From: Candidatus Hydrogenedentota bacterium
GTDB lineage: Bacteria; Hydrogenedentota; Hydrogenedentia; Hydrogenedentales; JAEUWI01
Assembly (NCBI GenBank): GCA_034669905.1
Contig: JAXMOL010000050.1
Span: forward strand, 1 to 54,214
Direction of reading: 5' to 3'
DNA length: 54,214 nt
A program made the position numbers and the translations under genes. This document shows positions 11,770 to 29,019 of this stretch, in pieces. The notes below the pieces were generated by a model. That model was not told the origin of the DNA. It ran no database searches and saw only the letters and a program-made list of their open reading frames with translations. How positions within the stretch are numbered: position 1 is the first letter of the stretch; each line of letters begins with the position of its first letter.

Positions 11770-11910
11770 CACCACCCGCTCCCCGACATCACGAAGCGAG
11801 AGACGAAGCGGGTGCCACTTACACGGACGTGAGGCACGAACGGCCTTATGGGTGCCTCACTAATAAGGCGGGTCCACGACGCCCCCTAACAGGCGGGTCC
11901 ACGACGCGCC

Positions 11911-12310
11911 GTAGGCGGGGACTGCACCGACGCAGTTCGCCCACCCCAAGGAAAAAAGTCAGGGGGCAAGCCCGCCCCAACGGCCCCTACCCCGAACACC
12001 CGGACGTCGGGGCCGTCCCCCTCTTCACAGCGATTCCTGGCAGACCAGGAGCCCCACGTTAAGGCCGCAAGCAAGCTTGCTTAAAAAGAGCAGCAGCAAG
12101 CTGCCGCACCGCAGGCGGGGACTGCACCGACGCAGTTCGCCCGCCCCAAGGAAAAAAGCCAGGGGGCAAGCCCACCCCAACGGCCCCTACCCCGAACACC
12201 CGGACGTCGGGGCCGTCCCCCTCTTCACAGCGATTCCTGGCAGACCAGGAGCCCCACGTTAAGGCCGCAAGCAAGCTTGCTCAAAAAGAGCAGCAGCAAG
12301 CTGCCGCACG
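11911..12310. repeat. Tandem 200-bp duplication, each copy a REPIN-like unit (11917-12020, 12117-12220) plus a GCAAGCTTGC...GCAGCAAGCTGCCGCAC REP
   Basis: Near-identical copies with period 200 and the same 15-bp ends as 20-226. Confidence 0.9.
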
Positions 12311-13119: not shown

Positions 13120-13485
13120 CTACCGGCGGCGACGGCCAATCAATCGGCTGATCCACACATCGATGTAGTCCTCGCCGATGGTACGCAGCAAATCAATCCC
13201 CTCCTCCCGCGCCAGCTTGATGGCCCGCATACGCGCCATCGAGCGCGCACGGGATTTCTCCTCCTCCGTCAAGCGCCCATCCGCACGCCCCGCCTTGATC
13301 GCCTTCACATAGGCCTGGTAGGTCCGCTCCACGCCGGCCTCCAAAGCAAGCAAAGCGGCACGATAGCGCCGCTGCTGCCAGCGCTGGTACCGGTCACTTG
13401 CCTTGAAGCCCGACCACAAGCCCCCCACGACCGTACCCACAATCGTCATTCCCAAATCCAAACCCATCGCTTCCATTCCCTCCAT
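13120..13485 (-). CDS. Phage LL-H-type holin-like small membrane protein
   Basis: Single N-terminal TM, then 'AGVERTYQAYVKAIK...DGRLTEEEK..A' helices. Last gene of the structural operon; start uncertain. Confidence 0.5.
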   Translation of the reverse strand: MEGMEAMGLDLGMTIVGTVVGGLWSGFKASDRYQRWQQRRYRAALLALEAGVERTYQAYVKAIKAGRADGRLTEEEKSRARSMARMRAIKLAREEGIDLLRTIGEDYIDVWISRLIGRRRR

Positions 13486-13522
13486 AGCCATTCCCTTTCC
13501 CGAACCCAAACCTACATCCGGA

Positions 13523-14047
13523 CTAAACAAAGGTCCGCACGTCCTCGATATAGCCATTTACCCCATCGTCCACATCCTTGATGGACACCATCCCCGGCCG
13601 CAACACCAGGGTCGCCAGCGCCAGGGCACCACTATCCACCGCCGGTGCCACGGGACTCGCTGCCTCCGCCCCCGTCTTGATGGACACGCTCCACGTCGCC
13701 AGGTCGGCCTGCACCAGGTCAACCCGATCGTTGACGGATGGCACCTCCACCAACGCGGTAGGGGTCGCCTCCGAAAGACGATAGGGATAGCCGCCAATAA
13801 AGGCATAGCCCGGCGACACGGTCACGCCAAGTCCCACCGGTGCCGTCGCTTCCACCGCCAACTCCCCGGGCCCCAGGTTGCGCAAGACGCCATCGCCACC
13901 ACCCCACGCCTCGGCAATCAACAAAAAGGCCATCTCCAACGCCGCCTCGATACGGTCGTCCCACTGGTTCAACTTCGCGCTCGACACCGGTCGCTCTTCA
14001 AATACCCACTGGGTCTTCGTATAGGACGGACCCTGAATCGACATCAC
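13523..14047 (-). CDS. Minor tail / upper-baseplate-like protein
   Basis: GLGVTVSPGYAFIGG, DRVDLV, GAEAASPVAP, LALA.L...I.D.R pattern of siphovirus minor tail proteins; AGGAGG RBS. Confidence 0.65.
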   Translation of the reverse strand: MMSIQGPSYTKTQWVFEERPVSSAKLNQWDDRIEAALEMAFLLIAEAWGGGDGVLRNLGPGELAVEATAPVGLGVTVSPGYAFIGGYPYRLSEATPTALVEVPSVNDRVDLVQADLATWSVSIKTGAEAASPVAPAVDSGALALATLVLRPGMVSIKDVDDGVNGYIEDVRTFV

Positions 14048-14059
14048 TCATTCCTCCTC

Positions 14060-15798
14060 TTAGTCCAGGTGATACCCGACATCCAGCCCAATCACGTCGT
14101 CGTCCAGACGAAACTCGAAGAAGGCCGACAAACTGTCCTGACTGCGCGTGATAAAGCTCAGCGGAGACGTCACCGATCGATAGGGAGAGCCCAACTCCAA
14201 CTGGGTCTCCACGGTCTCGCCCGCCAGGCGGTGGACAACACCCGTAACCCGCGCCACGAAGCGTTCGCCAAAGTCATCCGCCCACCCCGCCGCGACGACG
14301 CTGTCCCGCTCCACCAGGGAGGCGCCCCGAAATTCCAGGAGATCCCCCACCGCTGCCGAAGCGCTTCCCCGATAGAACAGGGCGCGGCCCACCCGCGTTG
14401 GCCAGGCCAGGTCGCGCAAAATCCCCTGCCCCATCCGGGCGGCGTCATCCACCCGGCTCAACGCAAAAAACGGAAAGTAGCGAAAGGCCGTCCCCAATGC
14501 ATCGATACTGTCCTGCTCCGCGTGGTACCCGTCCACCGCGCCCTCCTGGGGATTCCCGACCAGGCGCAAAAGATTGACCAACCCCTCCTGCATCCGCCCC
14601 ATTTCGACCCCCGTCTCCACCGGATCGACCCGCACCACCGCGTCGATGTCCGTTCCACGGCGGACGGAGACCGCGCCATCCAGGTCCACCGAAAAGACAA
14701 AGCCATCGGCCAGGGTGACCAGGGCGGCAAGCACCTCCAGCACACCACCCCGGGTTTCAAAGGCCCCCACCACCGTGGTACAGGGCGCGATAGAGTCCGT
14801 GTGTACCCCCCTGTAGGAATAGAACTCCTTCAGGGCCAACGCGGAATCATGGTAACGGCCATCCGCATAGAGATAGACATCAGCCAGCCCCGCTTCCACC
14901 AGCCCTGCATTGAAACATTCACCGCCCCCAAAGACCAGCCCCAGGTAGCGACCGTAGGCATCCACCCGGTCATCATAGTGTCCGCTACCATCCACATGGG
15001 GATTCAGTTCGATGAAATCGATGCCCTTGGTGTCGATGTACTCCTGGAGCCGTGCCTTCGCCGCTTCGGCACGCTGCTTATACACGCTGCGCGCGTAGCG
15101 TCCATCGTCCCAATCCGCTACTTCCGGATGCCGCCCAATCGCGTGGCTGTTCCGGCTCGTCTCCTCACAGTCGATCATCATGAGGCGCAAGTCCGGCCAG
15201 GCCACCCCGTCGACCACGAGTCCCGATATCGTATCCCCATCCTTCGCTACCGCCGAGGAGGCATCAATCCGTGCGCTGTCCACCCACTGCCCGCTGTCAA
15301 TCCCCCCAGCGGCAACGCATCCGTCGCCGCCCGGCGCACATCGAACTTACCGTACTCCCGCTGTGCCCCATCCGGATAGGCCGTGTGGGCCACCGTATAA
15401 TGGACCGGCCCCCGTGCCCGGTTGAGCGCCGAGCGAATCATGGCATCGATGCGCATGTGCTGAAAGCGCACCGCCACGCTCCCGTTCCAACGCGCACCGT
15501 CCTGCTCGGCCTCGAAGGAAAGCAATTCCTGAAAATCCACATAGCGATCCACAATCAGACGCCGGACGTCCCCCCAGGCCGGACGCACGGTGGTCACGGT
15601 AGCCGATACGGCCATCCGGTCGTCCACGTAGACATCGACCCGATAGCCCACGCCGAATTGGGCCAGGGTGACCGGCAAGAGTCCCTCCACGCGGTCCGGA
15701 CGATCCGGCCCCGTACGGGTGACCTCCAGCAGGGGCACATCCCGAAAAAGCCCCACCCGCAACCCGGCCCGGTCGAAAACCTCCACACGATAGTCCAT
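14060..15798 (-). CDS. Baseplate hub/Tal-like protein with an inserted thermonuclease (SNase) domain, split into two frames at G6 (15302-15307)
   Basis: ORFs 15247-15798 and 14060-15283 overlap, and one extra G gives ...LPLGGIDSGQWVDSARID... Contains DGDTI, LRLMMIDCEET, DAYGRYLG and NAGLVEAGLA. Hub-like C-terminus (SIDALG, GDLL, ELGSP). Confidence 0.7.
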
Positions 15799-15800
15799 GC

Positions 15801-16484
15801 CTACCACCACCGGTCACGAAAAGTGACCTCCCCGTCCAGCAGGTGCGAACTACCGAGCCCGTCGTTGTAGGTCAACACGGTCTCCCCCGGTGCCAGGACG
15901 GGAAAGTCCCCCGTGGTGTAAGCCGTAATGTCGAGGTCATCGAGCCAGACCTGCCCTGCAGTCCCATCCACAATAAGCGTCGCACCCCCGTCGATTTCCC
16001 CCGCATACGTGAGGGTGCGCACACCGTCACTGAGTTCCGGGGCCACCACCGCCCCCAAGGTATCCAACGTCAGCACCGGGGAAGTCGAGAGGGTGCCACG
16101 GTTTTCCAACGTGACGGTGGCACCCGACGTATCGATGCTCCAGCCTACCGTGGTCGCCGTTTCCGCCTCCTCCCACGCCTCTTCCGCCCGCAGGACGACC
16201 GTGTACGCCCCCGTTCGTTGCGCACCGTTTAGCTCCCGGGTAAAGCCTTCCCGGCGCACCAACAGGCGGCGACCGGAACGCACCGAAAGGTAGACCGGCC
16301 CGTCCGCCGACGCCGCCTTCATCACTTCGTCCAGGGCGGCCTCCAGTGTGGCCCGGTCCGCCACGCCCCGGATCATGCCCGTAATCGTAATCAGGCGCGT
16401 GTTCCGCCCGCCTACCTGCTCATACGCTTCCCGCACCACCGTGTGCCCCTCGTCCAGTGCAAGGGTGCCAATACGAATTGTCAC
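15801..16484 (-). CDS. Distal tail protein (Dit)-like
   Basis: ENRGT...P.LT, LIVDG, and C-terminal GDFPVLAPGE...V.FRDRWW; positioned directly before the hub gene. Confidence 0.75.
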   Translation of the reverse strand: MTIRIGTLALDEGHTVVREAYEQVGGRNTRLITITGMIRGVADRATLEAALDEVMKAASADGPVYLSVRSGRRLLVRREGFTRELNGAQRTGAYTVVLRAEEAWEEAETATTVGWSIDTSGATVTLENRGTLSTSPVLTLDTLGAVVAPELSDGVRTLTYAGEIDGGATLIVDGTAGQVWLDDLDITAYTTGDFPVLAPGETVLTYNDGLGSSHLLDGEVTFRDRWW

Positions 16485-16513: not shown

Positions 16514-16927
16514 CTATTCCCCCAGCACTTCCGTTGTCTCGCCCACCCGGGCCGGACAATCGGCCTCCGGCTGGGCGCTATGGGGTGCCAGCAAGACGTA
16601 CCCCGCCTTTTCAAAGCGCCGGGCCATACTCATCAACGAAGCAAAACGCTGCCCCGCTCCCACGCGCTGTCCACCAATCTGCAGCTCCACCTGCTCGGCC
16701 GCATCCCTGGACGCCAGCCCCCGCAAGACCCCGCCAGCGGCCAGCAGCGTTTCTCCCTGCACCACGGCTTCTGGCGGACTCTCCAGATCCACCCCACCGT
16801 CCAGGTCCGCCAGCACCCGCTCATGGGCTTCAACGATACAGGCCGTCACCAATTCCGCACTCGCCACCGACGTATCCTCCACCTGCACCTGTAAGCGCAC
16901 CCCGGCCTCCGTCGCAAATACCGCCAT
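16514..16927 (-). CDS. Head-tail adaptor (connector)-like protein
   Basis: FATEAGVR start, helical ~137 aa, directly after the major capsid gene. Confidence 0.55.
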   Translation of the reverse strand: MAVFATEAGVRLQVQVEDTSVASAELVTACIVEAHERVLADLDGGVDLESPPEAVVQGETLLAAGGVLRGLASRDAAEQVELQIGGQRVGAGQRFASLMSMARRFEKAGYVLLAPHSAQPEADCPARVGETTEVLGE

Positions 16928-17046: not shown

Positions 17047-18096
17047 TCAGCTCCAGTCGCTCGTCATCACGACCCGGGCCTTGTCATAGGTGATGGCAAA
17101 GTCGGTCACCACCGAAAGATAGGTCCGGTCCCACTGCTGGCTGATGAGCTTGTCGGACTCCACCAGGAGATCCTGCTCGGTCAGTTTCTGCACGGCAAAC
17201 CCCGCATCAAGCAAGGTCAGCGTATCGGCCGGCTGGTCCGCCATGGGCACCAGCTCCACCCCCAGCGGCGTGGGCAGATTCCCCGTCTTCGCAAAGTCGA
17301 AAAGGGCACTGTCCGCAATCTGGGACAACTGCAAGACCGACTGGGCCGTGGCGTTGTCCACAATCATGTGGGTCGGCGTGAAGTAGTGCTCCTGGCTCAA
17401 CTTCATATAGGCCGCCACCAGATCGCCATAGGTCCACGTGTCCGCCGTCTCGGTGTTCATGGTTACCGGGGCCGTACCCGAGCCAGACGAGTCCCCTTCC
17501 ACCAGCACCGTCGCCAACCGCGCATCCAGACTGCGTCCCAGACGCTCGCCCATGCGCTGGAGGTGGACCCGGAGCATGTCGACACTCATACGGCGCACCG
17601 CCTCATAAGAGGCCAATACACCGCGCCCCTTCTTGTCCAACTTGACGATGCGGTCGCCATACTGGATTTCCGACTCGGGAATGGCCGCGCCCTCGGCGAC
17701 GCTGCGCAATTCCTCACTGCCTGCGTCTTCCGTCACGTAGGGCACGTCATAGGCCGTGCCCTCCACCCGCTCATCGTGCATGATGAGATGGGGATACACG
17801 GGCTTTCGCTGCAGGCCCGTGAGCACGGCCTCCCGCACCACATCGGGAAAGAGCCATTTCGCATTCGGGTCGGACTGGAAAAAGCGGTCCACCGTGATAC
17901 GGTTCACATCAATACCAAACTCCTGGGCACAGTAATCCTGAAGGTTGGTGTCCAGCGCACGAAAGTAGTGCTGATGCGTCAACCCCAGGTTGTTCAAGGT
18001 CTCATAGAGGCCCTGCCCCCGCACCTGTCGCAAGCTCTCCGGCGACTGGGCCAAAAAGCGAATCTGTTCCTTCATCTGCGTGTCTTGATAAGCCAA
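17047..18096 (-). CDS. HK97-fold major capsid protein
   Basis: LFPDVVREAV, VAEGAAIP, KLDKKGR...SYEAVRR...L.GD; AGGAGG RBS before the TTG start. Confidence 0.88.
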   Translation of the reverse strand: MAYQDTQMKEQIRFLAQSPESLRQVRGQGLYETLNNLGLTHQHYFRALDTNLQDYCAQEFGIDVNRITVDRFFQSDPNAKWLFPDVVREAVLTGLQRKPVYPHLIMHDERVEGTAYDVPYVTEDAGSEELRSVAEGAAIPESEIQYGDRIVKLDKKGRGVLASYEAVRRMSVDMLRVHLQRMGERLGRSLDARLATVLVEGDSSGSGTAPVTMNTETADTWTYGDLVAAYMKLSQEHYFTPTHMIVDNATAQSVLQLSQIADSALFDFAKTGNLPTPLGVELVPMADQPADTLTLLDAGFAVQKLTEQDLLVESDKLISQQWDRTYLSVVTDFAITYDKARVVMTSDWS

Positions 18097-18206: not shown

Positions 18207-18587
18207 TCACAGCAGCACGTGTACCGTAGACGCCGTCCCATCCACCTTCACGTTGATGCCCCGGCCATTCCCCGACGCGGGTGCCTTCACCGAACCATCC
18301 GTCGCCGAAGCCACCACACCCTGGGCACCATCCACGGTTGGGGCCGTTCCCGTGTACGTGAAGATGCTGATGCCCCGCACCTTGACCGGAATCGCCACAT
18401 CGTTTTCCGTTGCAGCCGCCAGCGCCTCACCGAAGACGTCGTCTTCCGCGTCCGTCACATTCGTGACCGTGTAGGCCCCCGAAAGCTTGACCGCGTCCCC
18501 CTTTGCAATCGCCACACTCCCCGAAGAAACGGTGCGACACGTAATCACCAACTCCGTTACCGAACCACCCGTATCACCAAAAGCCAT
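18207..18587 (-). CDS. Capsid decoration/cement protein (DUF2190-like)
   Basis: IAKGDAVKL, VFGEALAAA, IPVKVRG; small beta-rich protein before the capsid gene; GGAGG RBS. Confidence 0.75.
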   Translation of the reverse strand: MAFGDTGGSVTELVITCRTVSSGSVAIAKGDAVKLSGAYTVTNVTDAEDDVFGEALAAATENDVAIPVKVRGISIFTYTGTAPTVDGAQGVVASATDGSVKAPASGNGRGINVKVDGTASTVHVLL

Positions 18588-18811: not shown

Positions 18812-19525
18812 CTACCCGTCGGTGGTCAACTGCCGAAGAATCCCCATGGCCCGCGTCTGGTCGCCCGCGCCTTCTTCCACCGGCAATGTCACCGGACGAG
18901 ACACGGGCGTCGGGGGATACTTCTGGTCAAAGCGCACTTCCAGTCCGTGCAGATACTGCTGCACCACGGCCAGCCGCTCCCCAGCCAGGGTCTTGCGCCA
19001 CAGGGCTTCGTCAAAGCCCGCTCCATCCAACTCCCGACCAAGACCACAAAAACGTCCGACGGCCCGCTCCCGTGCCGTCTTGCCATCCTCGGCCAAGGCG
19101 GCCAGCTCTCCCACGGATATACCCAGATCGGCGGCGGCAGCCCGCAAGGTGGCCACCGTGCCCGCCGTCACGTCCTCCGCCTGGTCCACCCAAACGGAGA
19201 CCCGCTCGCGTTGGCCTTCCAAGACCAGAACACCCTCCGACGGATCCCCCGAGTCCCAGTAGTAGGTCCCCTCATCTTCCCGGACCGCCTCCCCATCCTG
19301 GGCCAGCCACGCCACCGGATGGGGGGCCTTCGCCGTCGCCCAGACGGTTCCCTCCAAGACAAGACCGTCCACCCGGAAGCCCATGAGGTAGCCCTCCTGC
19401 TCCAGGCGCAAATCCAGGTGCGCACCACCTTCGTCGTGGTGGCGGTGCAACACAAAGCGCCGCCCCGTAGCGCCATCTTTCGTGCCTTCCGCCGAGGCCC
19501 GTTCGCATCGCAGTCGATGTAACAT
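18812..19525 (-). CDS. LigD 3'-phosphoesterase-like domain fused to a scaffold-like helical C-terminus
   Basis: RRFVLHRH..HLDLRLEQ..KAPHPVAW..DEGTY aligns by eye to LigD PE FVVQKH..HYDFRLE..EDHPLDY..DRGTY. C-terminal LAEDGK..RE..scaffold-like helices. Confidence 0.6.
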   Translation of the reverse strand: MLHRLRCERASAEGTKDGATGRRFVLHRHHDEGGAHLDLRLEQEGYLMGFRVDGLVLEGTVWATAKAPHPVAWLAQDGEAVREDEGTYYWDSGDPSEGVLVLEGQRERVSVWVDQAEDVTAGTVATLRAAAADLGISVGELAALAEDGKTARERAVGRFCGLGRELDGAGFDEALWRKTLAGERLAVVQQYLHGLEVRFDQKYPPTPVSRPVTLPVEEGAGDQTRAMGILRQLTTDG

Positions 19526-19539
19526 GCTTCCCCCTATTC

Positions 19540-19734
19540 CTATTGTGTGAGCAGTTGCTGCGCCAGGGTGATGGTGACCCCAATCAAATTCGCCACCAAC
19601 AACAACACACCCCGCGCCAGGGTCGCCTCCAACCGGCTCACCCGCTCTTTCACTTCCCGCAAATCTTCCCGCACGTTGTCCATTTGAAGCGCGTAGATCG
19701 GCTCAAAGGGACAGGTGCATCCCGCTTTCTCCAT
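19540..19734 (-). CDS. Small coiled-coil plus C-terminal TM protein (XhlA/holin-like)
   Basis: 64 aa MEKAGC...LREVKERVSRLE...VLLLVANLIGVTITL; AGGAGG RBS. Confidence 0.6.
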   Translation of the reverse strand: MEKAGCTCPFEPIYALQMDNVREDLREVKERVSRLEATLARGVLLLVANLIGVTITLAQQLLTQ

Positions 19735-19754
19735 AGCTCCTCCTTGTCTCGTCC

Positions 19755-20432
19755 CTATTCCCCAGCCCAGAGCGGCGCCTGTTTTACAGCGGCGGAATCG
19801 GGAAGCTTCTCCCACACGCGTTCCGCACCACTGCGCTCCCCCCGCACAAAGCCCGTACCCTGTGAGCCCGACGAAACGACCGAACCTTCCAGGACCTCCA
19901 ATACATCCCGCATGATGAAGTGACACACGTCCTCCCCGTAGGCCTGGCCGGGCACGTGGTCGCAGGTGCGCAGGTCTTTGCCACAGACGGAACATTCTGG
20001 CATGCGGAAGGAAAACCCAATGGAGGTCTCCCGATAGACGCCCCCTTCGATATTCAGGATGAAGTCCCGGTTCTCTTCCGTCCGCATCACATACACTTCG
20101 GGACGAACCGAGACCATCTCACCTTCGCGGTGCAACGCCGAACGAAAGAAACGGCCCCGCGGCAGGGTGCCCCGCAGGTCATGCCGTTCCATCAAGGGAC
20201 GTCCCGGCACGAGCGCGTTGATGCGTTCCAATTCCTCCTCCGGAAAACGACTGAAGTGGCGGTCCACCTGGTTGTTACACAAATCCAGTGTGAAGGTGAC
20301 ATATTCCGCCCCATCCATTTCCCGGAGGGCAAAGCGATTCACCGCGTCCGCCACGTCCGATTCATCCATCACCACCGCCCGGGACGCCACCAGACGCCCC
20401 GCCTGCCGAAACACAAACGGTTCCAATTCCAC
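19755..20432 (-). CDS. Prohead maturation protease-like protein with Cys/His zinc-binding insert
   Basis: LCNNQVDR..RF, ERHD (His), ETSIG, CSVC..CDH..C, EGSVV (Ser); AAAGGAGG RBS; follows the portal gene. Confidence 0.75.
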   Translation of the reverse strand: MELEPFVFRQAGRLVASRAVVMDESDVADAVNRFALREMDGAEYVTFTLDLCNNQVDRHFSRFPEEELERINALVPGRPLMERHDLRGTLPRGRFFRSALHREGEMVSVRPEVYVMRTEENRDFILNIEGGVYRETSIGFSFRMPECSVCGKDLRTCDHVPGQAYGEDVCHFIMRDVLEVLEGSVVSSGSQGTGFVRGERSGAERVWEKLPDSAAVKQAPLWAGE

Positions 20433-20520: not shown

Positions 20521-20576
20521 CCCTTCACCCTTCACCCTTCACCCTTCACCCTTCACCCTTCACCCTTCACCCTTCC
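20521..20576. repeat. Heptamer tandem array (CCCTTCA)7, supplying the portal stop codon
   Basis: Read directly; TGA at 20567-20569 lies inside the array. Confidence 0.95.
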
Positions 20577-21814
20577 AACTCCCGCCGCAGCCCTTCATCG
20601 TCCAAGAGCCCGGCCTCACGAAGTTGCAAGGCATTCCCGATCTCCTTCTCCCGGGCCTGGGCTTCTTTCAACACATCCACCGTGCGGTTCCTGTGCATCC
20701 GCACCTGCGCTTCGGCTTCGCCCCACATGAGCGCCAGCTCCACGTTGTAGAGACGCTCCAGCATCTGCTGGACGCTGCGGTTAATGCCTTCCACCTGGCG
20801 GTTGATGATTTCGAACTGGGCCGTGCCATAAGTCTCCGTCGTGCCATAATTCCGCCCGAGCAAGATGGGCATGAGGTGCATCCCCGTGATCACCTGTTCC
20901 TCAATGGCCTTGTGGTTGTCATAGAAAACCTGGGTTCGCTGGTCCCCGCGCAACATGGAGATATTCACGTTGTCGTAGGTCACCAGATTCTGATCCGCCT
21001 CAAGGCCACTCAACTTGTCCCGCAGCGCGGACAGGTTCGATTGCATCCGCTCCTGGTACGCCTCCACACTTTCGCCCCGCGCCCGCTCTTCCACGGCATA
21101 TTGAACATGCAACTTGTTCCACCCCGCATTGTGGGTTGCCTTCGCCATGTCTTCCATCAAACGTTGCTGAATTTTCACGACAAAAGGAATAGAGCGCAAC
21201 ATGGAACGCCCGTAGGGATTGGTGCCTTCGCGGTCGAGTCCCACATAGATAAATCGCTCCATCGGCAGCTTGATCGATTGCCCACCGACCAGCTGATAGG
21301 CCTGGAGCTGCCCGTCTTCCCGACGAAAGCGGATAGTCCACACATCGATGGGCACCACATCCCAAATGGACTCACGGCTCTGCGACAGCACAATCTCCAC
21401 CGCAGCGGCACCGTAGGTGAAGAGCGACGTATAGAACACATCGAGGAGGCCCTCCATACCCCGGTCCCCCGAATTTACCCGCTTGTCGAGGGCCGTGATG
21501 AGACGGCGTGCCCGCGCTTCCGCCGCCTCCGAACTGACCGACGTGAAGTCGACCGTGTAGCCCGTCTGGCAAAGGCGCTTCCATGTCCATATCGCATCAG
21601 ACACATCGGGGATGGCATCCCGCAGAAAGCGATAGACATCGAGCATGGCAAAGGGCGTGTCATTGGCCATCCCCACATAGGATCCCCAGGCCCCATCCCA
21701 TGGCCCCCCATCCGCCGTGCGGCTGACCGTCTTGAAGACCCCCGCCGGTGCCTTGGGTGCCGGACGCACCCCCCGGGTCTTCTCCCGCCGGAACCAATCC
21801 TTCCATCGCCCCAT
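20567..21814 (-). CDS. Phage portal protein
   Basis: LFTYG.A..EIV, VPIDVWTIRF, NPYGRSML, helical stem, QMLERLYN; 415 aa; first gene of the head module. Confidence 0.82.
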   Translation of the reverse strand: MGRWKDWFRREKTRGVRPAPKAPAGVFKTVSRTADGGPWDGAWGSYVGMANDTPFAMLDVYRFLRDAIPDVSDAIWTWKRLCQTGYTVDFTSVSSEAAEARARRLITALDKRVNSGDRGMEGLLDVFYTSLFTYGAAAVEIVLSQSRESIWDVVPIDVWTIRFRREDGQLQAYQLVGGQSIKLPMERFIYVGLDREGTNPYGRSMLRSIPFVVKIQQRLMEDMAKATHNAGWNKLHVQYAVEERARGESVEAYQERMQSNLSALRDKLSGLEADQNLVTYDNVNISMLRGDQRTQVFYDNHKAIEEQVITGMHLMPILLGRNYGTTETYGTAQFEIINRQVEGINRSVQQMLERLYNVELALMWGEAEAQVRMHRNRTVDVLKEAQAREKEIGNALQLREAGLLDDEGLRRELEG

Positions 21815-21949
21815 ACCGTTCCTCTCCCTCTGCTGTGGGCCACGGGCCCGCCTGACTTCCAGCTATAGGGATCGGTCATCTACCCCAAAGGGCGCTAATA
21901 AGGGAATTTCAAAGGACTTACAGAATCAGCGGCTCTCGATGCTTTCGCA

Positions 21950-22443
21950 ACACGCCCCCGGCGGGGACTGCACCGACGCAACACACCACGCCGCACCTAC
22001 ACCAACCCGCGGGCGAGAGCCCCCCACCGGACACAGCCAAGCCCAACCGGACGTCGGGGCCGTCCCCCTCTTCAAGCAAGACTCCACCCAACCCAAGGCA
22101 TCCTGCCAACGCTCGTCCACCCACCAATGCCGCAAGCAAGCTTGCTCAAATAAAGCGACAGCAAGCTGCCGCACGCCACGGAGTTTCCCCAGCTGACTTC
22201 ACAACAGGTCGAACGTAGTCAGGAGACGCGTTTTGGGGCGGGTCCACGACACGCCCCCGGCGGGGACTGCACCGACGCAACACACCACGCCGTACCCACA
22301 CCAACCCGCGGGCGAGAGCCCCCCACCAGACACAGCCAAGCCCAACTGGACGTCGGGGCTGTCCCCCTCTTCAAAACGACGAAGGAGTACCGAAGCACAC
22401 GTGAAGGGTGCCACCTATACGGACGTGAGGGACGTACGGCCTT
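21950..22443. repeat. REP mosaic: REPIN-like units 21963-22067 and 22262-22366, GCAAGCTTGC REP 22129-22176, GGGTGCCAC motif 22406-22443
   Basis: Same motifs as in 11810-12310. Confidence 0.88.
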
Positions 22444-24779: not shown

Positions 24780-27700
24780 CTAGCGGAGCAGCGCCTTGTT
24801 CACCACCACCTGGATGTCCGAGGCGTTTACCTGGCCGTCCCGGTTGGCGTCCGGATTAACGTCTTCCGACTTGGCGCCTGGCAGTGCCAGCACCGCGTTG
24901 ACCACCAACTGAACGTCAATGGCGTCGATTTTTCCGTCGTTGTTCACGTCGGTCACCGCGACAGCCGACCCTTCACCCAGATAGGTGAAGCCGTTGTGCA
25001 GGATGCCGTTTCCGTTGGTCGTTTTCACCACCACGTCAACCGTACCCGGCGCATGCAAGGGCGTCGTCACTTCGATTTCGCCGTCGGAAATGGCCCGGAT
25101 GCTCGTCACATCGGTGCCGCCGAAGGAGACCGAAATGGGCGCGCCCATACGGTTACCTTTGATACGAACCACGTCGCCGCCCATCACACTGCCCAGGGCC
25201 GGTGTCACAGAGACAATTTCCGGAATGGCCGATACGGTCACCACAGGCGAGAAGGCAATCGCGCCGGCAATACCGATCTGAGTGACCGGCACCACACCAA
25301 AGTACCACTTATCACCACCCCGGGTTGCCTGGGGCGAAATGCGGGTGCGATTGGTGAGACTCGTTACGATCTGGTTGTTGCGATACCAGTAGATAACCGA
25401 AGAGCCTTCGTCGTAGAGGCCAAAACCGTCCGCCTGCAGGGGATGGCTGTAGCTGTAGGCCGCCGAAAGTGCGCTCTCCGTTTGGACCGCACGGCTCCGG
25501 GTCGGATCTTCACCCGGCTCACCGGAAAGGAGCATCAGATTCGTGGCTTCCGGAATCAGCAGCACATCGCCAACCTGCACGGTAATGTCCTGGTAAGCGA
25601 TCTGCCCATCCGCCCGGGCCGTGACACGGAGCTGGTAGGTGCCCGCATCCTGCAAGGTCGTCTGCCAGCTGAAGGTTCCCGTTCCATTCCCGTTGTCTGC
25701 GAAGCGCAAACCACCCGGACCATTCCATTCGCCAGTGAGCACCGGCGTCGTGGCGCTGCCTTCGGGAGCGATGGCCGTAACCGTGAACTCGACGAGTTCA
25801 CCCGCATCCACTCCAGCTACCGAGACGGGCTCCAGTCGAAGCAGTACGTTGTTCTCCGGCAGATTCGAGAGGTCCGAAAGACCGCCCGCACTCGCCACAC
25901 CCGGGAAGATGGTTGCGGGATCAACCGGAACACCCCGGCCATCCGAAAGACCAACCACGGCGGCACTCGCCACCGCATCCAGATAGGTCATCCGAATGTG
26001 GCCACTGTAGAAAAGCTCCACCTGAATGGTGCTCGTCGAACCCACCGTGCTCGGAGCCAGCGAATTAAACTGGGGCACGTTCTCGTAGGTAACCACGAAG
26101 CGGTCATCGAGGAAGCGCAACCACATCGAACCACCCGCGCTGGAAGCCAGGGTATCAAAGAGGTCCGCGTTGCCTGCGAAGAAGTAGGAGATACGGGGAA
26201 TCGCAAAATGGGACGCCAGGCTGGGGAAGTTCAAGGTATCTCCCGCACCCACCGGCTGGAAACTGATGTAGCCGTTTGCCGCCGCGTATATCTGCGCATA
26301 AGGCTGCCCGAAGAAGGGGAAGGTCTTCTCGCCCAGATTCACAACAACACCCGAATCCTGGGGCGACGTGATATCGAAGGCCCGACCCGCACTATCTTCA
26401 CGCGCCACGGGCAACGCAAAGGCTTCGGGATTAAAGGTCGCTTCGTAGTTATTGAAGCTGCCACTCCCGGTGCTGCTGCCGAAGGCCCCGACAGGCGGGC
26501 CAACCGGCGTATAGAGAATCTGGCTGTAGGCAAGATCCACCGTGTTGGATCCGTCCCCGAAGAGACTGTCCGATCCGAAGGACTCTGTCAGGGCGCTGGA
26601 GGCAATTTCGCCTGCCGTCGCCCGCGCCGAGACCAACTGGGGAAGCCCCGAAGTCAGGTCCACGATGACGCTGTAGTAGTAGGTAACGCCGTCGAGTACA
26701 TCTTCGTCCAGAAACTGGGCCATGGTACCGCGCGCAATTTCTTCGCCGTCACTCAAGCTCGTCGGGAATCCCACGACACTTCGCACGACGACGACTTCGT
26801 CAAAAAGCGCCGCATCCGGATTCGTCCATTTCAGGGCGATTACCGGGCTACCCGTCGTATCGGTCGTGGCCAGTGCGCGGAAGTCGCGCAATCCGTCGTC
26901 AAAAAGGAAATCCGGAATAATCTCGACGGCCTTACCGGCGTTCGAGATATTCAGGCGTTCTTCGAAACTCAGCCCCATATCGATCGCCGAAGCGCCCATG
27001 GCGAGATAGAGGTCGTTGTAGTCCGACCCGGGCGAAAGCAGAAACTGTGTCCCAAAGAACAAATCCGCGGTCATAGAGATGCCCATGCCGGTGATAGTCT
27101 GACCATTGAAGGTGCCACCGTCCGTCAGCAGATAACACAGCTTGTTACCAATACCGCTGTTGACGTGTACCCCGCCATTGTCCACGAAGGAAGTCACGTC
27201 CAGCAGGAGCGAACTGCCCAAGCGGTCGGGATGCCCGAAAATCGTCGGGTCCTTCATATTACGGATACCGACATTGCCGAAGGTCCCGAAAATACTCGGG
27301 TCCAATTCTTCACCGACGATCCAACGGTTGGCTTCCGTATCATTGTCGCTGCCATTGGTCTGGTCGACCCACTCGCCCCACATGTCCGAGAAAGACTCGT
27401 TGATGGCGCCGGAGAAACCAAAGTAAATGAGCCCCGAGGTAAACTGGGTCAAGCCGTGCGTCAACTCGTGGGCCACCACGTCGTCGAGAACAAACCCGGT
27501 GCCGAAAAGCATTTCGGTAATGTCACCCGAACCTTCCTCGGTGCTACCCGGGCTGAGCGAACAACCCCAGCAGGCGTTGGAGAATGGCACGTTGACGGTG
27601 GCCACAATCGGGCTGCCGTTGCCATCGAAGCTGTCGTATCCATGTTCGGTGAGGTAGAAATTGTGCGTGTCACCCAGAAACTCGTACGCGTCGTCCACCG

Positions 27701-28559
27701 CCGGGATGCCCGTCGGGCCGTCCCCTTCGGCGCGGGTCGGCGTCGCCGGAACCGTAATCCCACCGTCCGCATCAAAAATCTGACGATCCAGCACATGTTC
27801 CATCAGCGAGTACTGCAGAGCCACCTGGCCGCTGTGTGCATCCACAAAGACCACGCTGTGCACGGGGTCCGCACCGTTGGCGGCCAGTTCCAAACGCCAC
27901 ACCAATCGGGTCGCGCCGGAAAGTCCGACCACGGAAGGGCGGAAGATCATCAATTCGGGCGCTACCACGCCCCGATAATCGCTGGCCACATGCGAATCAG
28001 AGTTTACCGCGAAATCGTTAATGGCCGCCGCAAGCGCCTGTCCCCCTGAAAGGGTCGGCGTCAACGATACCGAGCCATCATCCAGCGCACGGGTGTCGCG
28101 CATGATGTCGCTCATGACATTCTGCACGCCTCGGGAAGCATTCACCTGCAACACGACCTGGCCACCCAGAACCGGGATATCGTCGTAGTACTGGTCCAGG
28201 TGCACAAAATCAGCGTCCCCATAGGAACGGATCGGACCGGTACGGAAGTTCGTCGCGTCGCTGAGCACACCAAAGGCACCCGCGTGATCGGTGACAAAGA
28301 CCGATGCCACCGAAGCCGCATCCGCGGCCTTCGCTCCGGTCTCGCGCACGAGGAAACTACCCCCCGGAGGCGCACCGAGGAATCGGACGAATCCTTCGTC
28401 CGTCTGGTGAATCACTGGCGCTTCCGTCGCACCCGGCGCATTCAACGACCGGAGCACGCCCCGGACATCACTATCCTCTACCGAAAGAGATTCCGCCGTG
28501 CTGATGAAGGAAACCGTCACCATTGCCAAGGCAAGACCGCTGGTCAAAAATGCGTTCAT
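24780..28559 (-). CDS. Secreted M4 (thermolysin-like) metallopeptidase with FTP/PepSY propeptide, Ig-like and IPT/TIG domains, and C-terminal dockerin-like repeats
   Basis: VVAHELTHG, GAINESFSD, DNGGVHVNSG; IPT 'GG..V.I.G..V.FGG..TP.HAPG.VDV'; DVNNDG..DVQLVVN and DANRDG..DIQVVVN. Confidence 0.92.
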   Translation of the reverse strand: MNAFLTSGLALAMVTVSFISTAESLSVEDSDVRGVLRSLNAPGATEAPVIHQTDEGFVRFLGAPPGGSFLVRETGAKAADAASVASVFVTDHAGAFGVLSDATNFRTGPIRSYGDADFVHLDQYYDDIPVLGGQVVLQVNASRGVQNVMSDIMRDTRALDDGSVSLTPTLSGGQALAAAINDFAVNSDSHVASDYRGVVAPELMIFRPSVVGLSGATRLVWRLELAANGADPVHSVVFVDAHSGQVALQYSLMEHVLDRQIFDADGGITVPATPTRAEGDGPTGIPAVDDAYEFLGDTHNFYLTEHGYDSFDGNGSPIVATVNVPFSNACWGCSLSPGSTEEGSGDITEMLFGTGFVLDDVVAHELTHGLTQFTSGLIYFGFSGAINESFSDMWGEWVDQTNGSDNDTEANRWIVGEELDPSIFGTFGNVGIRNMKDPTIFGHPDRLGSSLLLDVTSFVDNGGVHVNSGIGNKLCYLLTDGGTFNGQTITGMGISMTADLFFGTQFLLSPGSDYNDLYLAMGASAIDMGLSFEERLNISNAGKAVEIIPDFLFDDGLRDFRALATTDTTGSPVIALKWTNPDAALFDEVVVVRSVVGFPTSLSDGEEIARGTMAQFLDEDVLDGVTYYYSVIVDLTSGLPQLVSARATAGEIASSALTESFGSDSLFGDGSNTVDLAYSQILYTPVGPPVGAFGSSTGSGSFNNYEATFNPEAFALPVAREDSAGRAFDITSPQDSGVVVNLGEKTFPFFGQPYAQIYAAANGYISFQPVGAGDTLNFPSLASHFAIPRISYFFAGNADLFDTLASSAGGSMWLRFLDDRFVVTYENVPQFNSLAPSTVGSTSTIQVELFYSGHIRMTYLDAVASAAVVGLSDGRGVPVDPATIFPGVASAGGLSDLSNLPENNVLLRLEPVSVAGVDAGELVEFTVTAIAPEGSATTPVLTGEWNGPGGLRFADNGNGTGTFSWQTTLQDAGTYQLRVTARADGQIAYQDITVQVGDVLLIPEATNLMLLSGEPGEDPTRSRAVQTESALSAAYSYSHPLQADGFGLYDEGSSVIYWYRNNQIVTSLTNRTRISPQATRGGDKWYFGVVPVTQIGIAGAIAFSPVVTVSAIPEIVSVTPALGSVMGGDVVRIKGNRMGAPISVSFGGTDVTSIRAISDGEIEVTTPLHAPGTVDVVVKTTNGNGILHNGFTYLGEGSAVAVTDVNNDGKIDAIDVQLVVNAVLALPGAKSEDVNPDANRDGQVNASDIQVVVNKALLR

Positions 28560-29019
28560 TCTTCCTCCAAGTCCCCTCGGCTTCGGAGCGATACCGCTCG
28601 TCATCGCTCCAGCCCTACGTCCTCGCATAGCTACCTTCTCCTTTGGGACCGCGCTGTCAACTACGGCACGGTTGAAAAATCAAATACGCTGCGCATGCGA
28701 GCCATATGGACCGCTATGCCTAATCAGGCAGCGACACAACCCGGGCTGCGCCAAATACTCCCCGTATTTTCGCGTCGTTCATGTCAAAATGGGTGGTAAA
28801 CATCTGACAACAGGATTGTGACAGATCCCCTACACCCTATCGTACTATTTTTTATCTTAATCCTTCTACACCAATACGATACGATAAGTCAAGGAAAACC
28901 TCCAACGGAATGGATGCAATATACGAAAAACGTCAATTGTGTCGCTCCGGTCCAGTTTCACCATGGGGCAGCCGATAGACCGGGAAGCACCCAGGCAACG
29001 GCAATGGAGGCCCTGTATC

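Follow-up and report, generated by a model that had tools for sequence, protein, structure and literature searches.

The minus-strand gene at positions 15798-14060 of the window, by which we mean the whole stretch of 54,214 nt from a Candidatus Hydrogenedentota contig analysed here, encodes a gp27/Tal-type tail hub with a staphylococcal nuclease (SNase) domain inserted into hub domain II, an assignment confirmed by modelling of an intact homologue. Sequence comparison suggests a new variant within the hub family, which would belong to a candidate new system resembling gene transfer agents (GTAs). To our knowledge, known tail-tip enzymes act on the cell wall or on polysaccharides; a tail hub with a built-in DNase, in a presumably DNA-carrying particle, is unexpected.

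An SNase domain with a full active site

The preliminary description had read this gene, after frame correction, as an SNase domain with a full active site, flanked by a gp27/Tal-type hub and placed right after the distal tail gene Dit. All SNase motifs quoted in it are present, on the minus strand, and each part of this reading held. In the Pfam scan, the C-terminal piece of the gene matched PF00565 (SNase) with an E value of 4.4e-6 and 27.5 bits, above the curated cut-off of 21, and a profile of 50 homologues searched against the PDB matched staphylococcal nuclease chains (best E 1.2e-7). Aligned to staphylococcal nuclease, D187, D189, R205, D210, E213, D280, and R284 correspond to D19, D21, R35, D40, E43, D83, and R87, which we take to be its calcium-binding and catalytic residues. 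The domain covers residues ~170-333 of the 579-aa form (14801-15292, minus strand), with the DGDT motif at 15241-15230, R205 at 15187, D210 at 15172, E213 at 15163, D280 at 14962, and R284 at 14950. Residues 170-333 of the modelled homologue P0002 aligned with the OB-fold of 1sta over 128 residues (VIA Z 13.2, rmsd 2.5 Å); the loop after E213, the E43 equivalent, is longer than in staphylococcal nuclease.

Conservation points in the same direction. All seven active-site residues are retained in 117 of 122 homologues (distinct sequences of at least 560 aa, 93 of them exactly 579 aa), while the other five, as well as the distant P0148, have lost at least one catalytic residue with the domain still present. 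Mean pairwise identity is 68% for the insert versus 47% and 45% for the two hub halves. For the insert, all ten chosen pairs gave dN/dS ratios of 0.07-0.12; hub values were 0.08-0.35 (below 0.36 wherever computable), and dS was often near saturation.

Two sequences stand apart from this set. P0148 is a divergent 612-aa hub-SNase protein with a degraded active site, encoded on an unplaced contig and possibly from outside the phylum; no locus for it was found in GTDB. P0171, a stand-alone SNase, has the same long loop after the E43 position and represents a candidate donor family of the insert.

Hub fold and insertion site

The hub flanks of the SNase domain had no Pfam or PHROG match. An AlphaFold2 model of P0002 from 50 sequences (pLDDT 89.5) gave hubs and spikes as its best Foldseek matches in the PDB (E 5e-11 to 8v3w_H), and phage tail and uncharacterised phage proteins as its best matches in BFVD. 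VIA aligned the model with the HFTV1 hub 9h4p_BD at Z 20.9, and the top 25 rows were all hubs or VgrG-type spikes. Furthermore, the hub gene directly follows Dit in all 21 loci compared.

Insert-free hub relatives of 359-399 aa skip from approximately residue 130 to residue 340, so that a stretch of ~200 residues, consisting of a conserved linker and the SNase domain, appears to have been inserted past the first helix of hub domain II. Among distant hub relatives, the longer ones bear laminin-G, CBM, or FN3 domains, which lie before that helix where they could be mapped. The idea that the SNase occupies the same slot as these sugar-binding inserts was rejected, since it lies after the helix. 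The sugar-binding domains nonetheless indicate that hubs of this lineage display surface-acting cargo. According to the accessible parts of the sources (10.1101/2022.09.20.507954, PMC10721106), the tube of T5 and RcGTA is closed by a large insertion in domain II; by the same logic the nuclease could point towards the exit of the DNA and put the cargo at risk.

A frame break in this genome

From the ATG at 15798 to the stop at 14060, the gene measures 1739 nt, that is, 579 codons plus stop minus one base, and it is present as two ORFs (15247-15810 and 14060-15283). Compared with the intact P0002, these correspond to residues 1-170 (84% identity) and 173-579 (88% identity), respectively. The N-terminal piece (15247-15798, minus strand) holds hub domain I, the start of domain II, and the conserved linker, and is out of frame past a G6 run at 15302-15307, where the frame is one base short. 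The C-terminal piece (14060-15283, minus strand) holds the SNase domain and the second half of the hub.

Contigs from two of four sequencing runs (X1 and X2) span the G6 run, both of them ungapped, which is evidence against an assembly slip; X1 and X2 belong to one study, maybe the source samples, and are not independent of the assembly. X3 and X5 contained no spanning contig. The break thus looks real in this population, and the hub-SNase copy of this genome is, judged from its sequence, probably inactive. Of the 89 genomes in which the hub was matched, G039, G084, and G040 likewise show a disrupted match. We considered a programmed frameshift at the G6 run and rejected it: at this place, close relatives carry different codons that stay in frame, and the folding of the downstream RNA is similar to that of shuffled sequences (z 0.97), which argues against a conserved mechanism of this kind. 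Occasional slippage at the run may occur.

A conserved cluster of virion genes

The gene lies in a cluster with the order portal, likely protease, small helical protein, scaffold-position protein, cement, capsid, adaptor, Dit, and hub-SNase. Next come an anchor-like protein of 173 aa, frequently a lysin-like gene, and a holin-like gene, the last two assigned from weak matches. This order is identical in all 21 hub-positive loci, which were picked for long contigs.

In the window, all of these genes are on the minus strand. The portal protein (20567-21814; phrog_3753, E 3.4e-48; PF06074) is followed by a likely prohead protease, so called for its position (19755-20432; phrog_16951, a family of unknown function, E 3.8e-36), and by an ORF (19540-19995) whose C-terminal ~65 aa are the small conserved helical protein (family F8, found in 18 of 21 loci). 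The scaffold-position protein (18812-19525) contains a LigD 3'-phosphoesterase-like motif (H-x-H...H-x-D-x-R...H). Its LigD_N match is below the cut-off (E 0.056; 0.0067 in an orthologue), and the motif is present in 38 of 39 loci, head-only lineages included. A DNA-end-healing enzyme within a head module would be unusual. Further along are the capsid decoration or cement-like protein (18207-18587; phrog_4588, E 8.8e-7), the major capsid protein (17047-18096; phrog_3922, E 2.8e-52), a head-tail adaptor of the Mu gp36/HK97 gp6 type (16514-16927), and Dit (15801-16484; phrog_33, E 3.4e-17; PF22768). The adaptor was assigned from the model of an orthologue, for which the best VIA match was 5ydn (Z 9.5) and the top 16 rows were all phage neck, connector, or tail-base structures; Foldseek gave no match at E ≤ 0.001. 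A predicted adaptor-Dit complex (score 0.15, mark 0.32) was set aside as evidence.

On the other side of the hub lie the 173-aa baseplate or virion anchor-like protein (13523-14047; phrog_20556, E 6.1e-8, and phrog_5339), whose similarity to longer virion proteins is confined to their N-terminal part, and a putative holin-like membrane protein (13120-13557). The latter is conserved at the cluster end, and its orthologue matches the holin family phrog_13712 weakly (E 0.14). No match for the lysin-like gene was obtained in this genome. Integrase and replication families were absent from the 25 window ORFs scanned, and none was conserved over the 21 loci, whose flanks are partly annotated.

Several other elements were observed around these genes. 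Near-identical intergenic repeats of ~170-190 bp are located on both sides of the region (11829-12274 and 21918-22174), where they show up as recurrent spurious ORFs. A peptidase of the thermolysin family (M4), 1282 aa long and containing Ig, TIG, and dockerin domains (24780-28628, minus strand), is a conserved neighbour of the cluster in five of the 21 loci. In G001, G002, and G078, the cluster also includes a fibre-like gene whose N-terminal motif is conserved (L040:6858-8159, L041:2124-3680, and L047:7384-8187); these copies have a signal-peptide-like start, and two of them show weak CBM_4_9 matches. The fibre-like gene of the genome studied here stands alone at G000:C1:261506-262186 on the plus strand (L170) and has no signal-peptide-like leader.

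Distribution and inheritance in Hydrogenedentota

The same hub-SNase architecture recurs in other genomes. Among 135 genomes of the phylum, the hub was matched in 89, Dit in 99, the capsid in 115, the terminase in 123, and rpoB, used as a control, in 127; hub, Dit, and capsid are nearly always single copy. The source names of the homologues point to Hydrogenedentota. A pattern scan of GTDB returned 72 loci, with 45 Hydrogenedent- titles, 18 of the Nitrospira type, 6 unlabelled, and 3 others. In a tree of 66, the non-Hydrogenedent labels are scattered among Hydrogenedentota, so we tentatively read them as labelling or binning noise.

A tree of portal, protease, and capsid shared 19 of 34 splits with the rpoB tree (shuffled mean 0.15, maximum 2). 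For strongly supported splits, 14 of 17 were common to both trees, with no strong conflict (FastTree; 37 of the 39 genomes that have all four genes). The hub had no match in INPHARED phages and none by pattern search in IMG/VR, and the closest capsid matches in isolate phage collections reached ~26-32% identity. Taken together, phylum-wide genes in nearly single copy, congruence with rpoB, and the lack of a close phage relative in these collections indicate, at the level of sequence, that the cluster is an old domesticated, vertically inherited element derived from a phage. The same three observations rule out a prophage or a recent prophage remnant. Vertical inheritance and purifying selection of phage-derived genes, both expected of a gene transfer agent, are found here.

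The terminase is encoded elsewhere

A large terminase of 491 aa is encoded among host genes on another contig (G000:C65:34660-36135; phrog_2, E 4.3e-23). In our search of this genome, PF03237 had a sole match, a UvrD helicase, which was discarded, and PF04466, PF03354, and PF05876 had none; a weak PF17289 match (E 0.02) pointed to the actual gene. The terminase adjoins the cluster in G063, G034, and G118. Thirty fetched copies all have Walker A and the C-terminal DHxxDA motif, and 29 have Walker B. A small helical gene nearby, with no family match, may be the small terminase subunit.

Related terminases occur in other settings. In each of three cassettes (L143, L144, and L145, in G082, G089, and G004), a replication-like gene and a small gene accompany a terminase that shares ~43% identity with its domesticated counterpart. 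No capsid genes lie close by, and the cassettes are possible satellites using the particle of their host. Two near-complete genomes (L161 in G071 and L162 in G132) have the terminase and a small partner gene and no capsid match.

The tail tip is dispensable in some lineages

The full hub profile matched in 4 of 23 genomes of lineage f3 and in none of the 10 genomes of lineage f8, yet the capsid was found in 20 of 23 and 10 of 10, respectively, and the terminase in 9 of the 10 f8 genomes. The core function therefore seems independent of the hub, and the gene content marks the tip nuclease as accessory and the tip as dispensable in some lineages. We inspected 20 loci from hub-negative genomes: 12 were head-only, 5 had Dit without a hub, 2 ended at a contig edge, and in 1 the hub was cut by the contig edge. 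In the head-only loci, the capsid is directly followed by lysin-like and holin-like genes. These clusters (L083-L086, L088, L089, L091, L092, L096, L098, L099, and L101) have no adaptor, Dit, or hub and are still well conserved.

None of the clusters examined contained a gene for a tube, stopper, or tape measure. Three tail tube families matched in none of five genomes, and a tape measure was above the cut-off in two of the five. The tape measure match of the present genome was rejected as a particle gene because it belongs to a separate, patchy integrated element on contig C30, present in three of nine genomes of the genus. This small element (G000:C30:29735-37193, minus strand) has integrase-like, protease- or scaffold-like, cement-like, capsid-like, small DNA-binding, and tape-measure-like (PF10145) genes, all labelled by eye except PF10145. 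No terminase or portal was seen in it, and it is possibly a capsid-forming satellite. Ranking 930 single-copy proteins by composition gave 39 candidates for dispersed tail genes, all from approximately the first 55 ranks; compared with PHROGs, they matched no tail family. Divergent tail genes dispersed in the genome are possible.

Possible functions of the tip nuclease

Tentatively, and with somewhat less than even confidence, we favour a GTA-like particle with an accessory nuclease at its tip that cleaves the extracellular DNA surrounding it after release. Assembly would be followed by packaging of host DNA through the terminase and by release on lysis, with three nuclease domains displayed at the distal end. 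Staphylococcal nuclease is calcium-dependent, and the hub domain would stay quiet in the low-calcium cytoplasm and become active outside. There it would free the particle from DNA in the lysate or the biofilm matrix, so that the particle could reach cells. A precedent for such a matrix-acting niche at a GTA baseplate is TspA of RcGTA, a detachable, biofilm-degrading, polysaccharide-directed tailspike that raises gene transfer, as described in the accessible part of the source (10.64898/2026.07.19.739414), where a search for the corresponding terms did not find a nuclease.

A tube-less DNA-packaging particle that has been kept since the root of the phylum, with the baseplate almost directly under the head, three active nucleases, and head-only forms in some lineages, is a speculative possibility. 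If true, the GTA architecture would be new and the DNase would be the first at a tail tip, serving to cut through biofilm DNA or to process the delivered DNA.

An unlikely alternative that still merits consideration is a nuclease facing the exit channel, where it would trim or nick the particle's own DNA at ejection and create ends for the competence machinery of the recipient. SNase cleavage leaves 3'-phosphate ends, and the LigD-like motif in the cluster could heal them. However, this motif is also kept in lineages without a hub, which uncouples it from the SNase and led us to reject a functional coupling of the two. Tube closure by the domain II insertions of T5 and RcGTA (10.1101/2022.09.20.507954, accessible part) would suit a position in the channel, but a non-specific nuclease at the exit would endanger the cargo.

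Rather improbable, in our view, is a particle that is not mainly a GTA and acts as a decoy, defence, or DNA-recycling device, its tip nuclease destroying foreign or released DNA. The 12 head-only loci among 20, the conservation of the head genes, and the retention of the terminase in f8 would fit such a role, as would head-only particles lacking an obvious means of DNA injection and the failure to find a conserved tube or tape measure. On the other hand, terminase, portal, and lysis-like genes suit DNA packaging and release, and tail-less or short-tailed GTA-like particles exist, such as FpGTA in the available text of its description (PMC12946183).

That the SNase fold serves as a DNA-binding or structural plug with incidental catalysis appears quite doubtful. 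The domain is kept with a degraded site in five homologues and P0148, and the longer loop after E213 might cover the site, but conservation of all seven catalytic residues in the other 117 homologues, across the phylum, speaks against such a role. Equally doubtful is a role as a bacteriocin-like weapon, in which the nuclease would enter competitors as a delivered toxin, an option of the preliminary description that emerges weakened. The hub fold is common to VgrG and contractile injection spikes, and PBSX packages DNA yet works as a tailocin, according to the accessible part of the source (PMC12946183). Here, however, the SNase sits mid-chain in a structural ring instead of at a terminus, the cluster contains neither a sheath nor a tube gene, the 21 loci showed no conserved immunity-like gene, and the nuclease is conserved and not diversifying. 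Finally, the suggestion that the SNase stands in for a missing terminase nuclease in packaging is almost certainly wrong, because the terminase, missing only from the window, is present in 123 of 135 genomes, its fetched copies have motor and C-terminal nuclease motifs, and the hub would be at the end opposite the motor.

Comparison with known systems

Neither a hub-SNase fusion nor a GTA of Hydrogenedentota was reported in the literature we searched, outside which most subscription papers fall; the matches for Hydrogenedent- together with GTA were metagenome surveys. Few GTA-like systems are known outside Alphaproteobacteria, as stated in the available part of one source (PMC12946183). The system described here spans an uncultured phylum and offers a natural series of full tip, Dit only, and head only, which makes both the adaptation of GTAs to biofilms and the role of a domesticated capsid after tail loss testable. 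Moreover, an assay of the SNase domain is feasible in E. coli and does not depend on cultivation of the host.

With the staphylococcal nuclease family (PF00565), the insert shares the OB-fold and all seven active-site positions. It differs in being embedded in a virion protein instead of being secreted, and in its longer loop after the E43 equivalent. The predicted hub resembles the gp27/Tal hubs (T4 gp27, Mu gp44, 80alpha Tal, T5 pb3, HFTV1 9h4p, and the RcGTA hub/megatron) in its four-domain fold, in following Dit, and in having an extra domain in or beside hub domain II. In contrast to these, the extra domain is an SNase placed after the first helix of domain II, and the protein lacks a long C-terminal spike or lysin.

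The nearest architecture, likened by description only, is FpGTA of Faecalibacterium, which likewise combines a head operon with baseplate and lysis genes. It has no visible tail, and its baseplate operon is missing in several strains (PMC12946183, accessible part). Its particles and their DNA packaging have been observed, whereas those of the Hydrogenedentota system are predicted, and the available text mentions no nuclease for FpGTA (PMC12946183). With RcGTA-type GTAs, as far as the accessible text describes them, the cluster shares vertically inherited, multi-locus, phage-derived particle genes and a matrix-acting baseplate enzyme, here a predicted one. It belongs to another phylum and to other gene families, with no tube, terminator, or tape measure found. 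Its predicted enzyme, a nuclease, is part of the hub itself, in contrast to TspA, which, by the same text, is a separate, detachable tailspike directed at polysaccharides.
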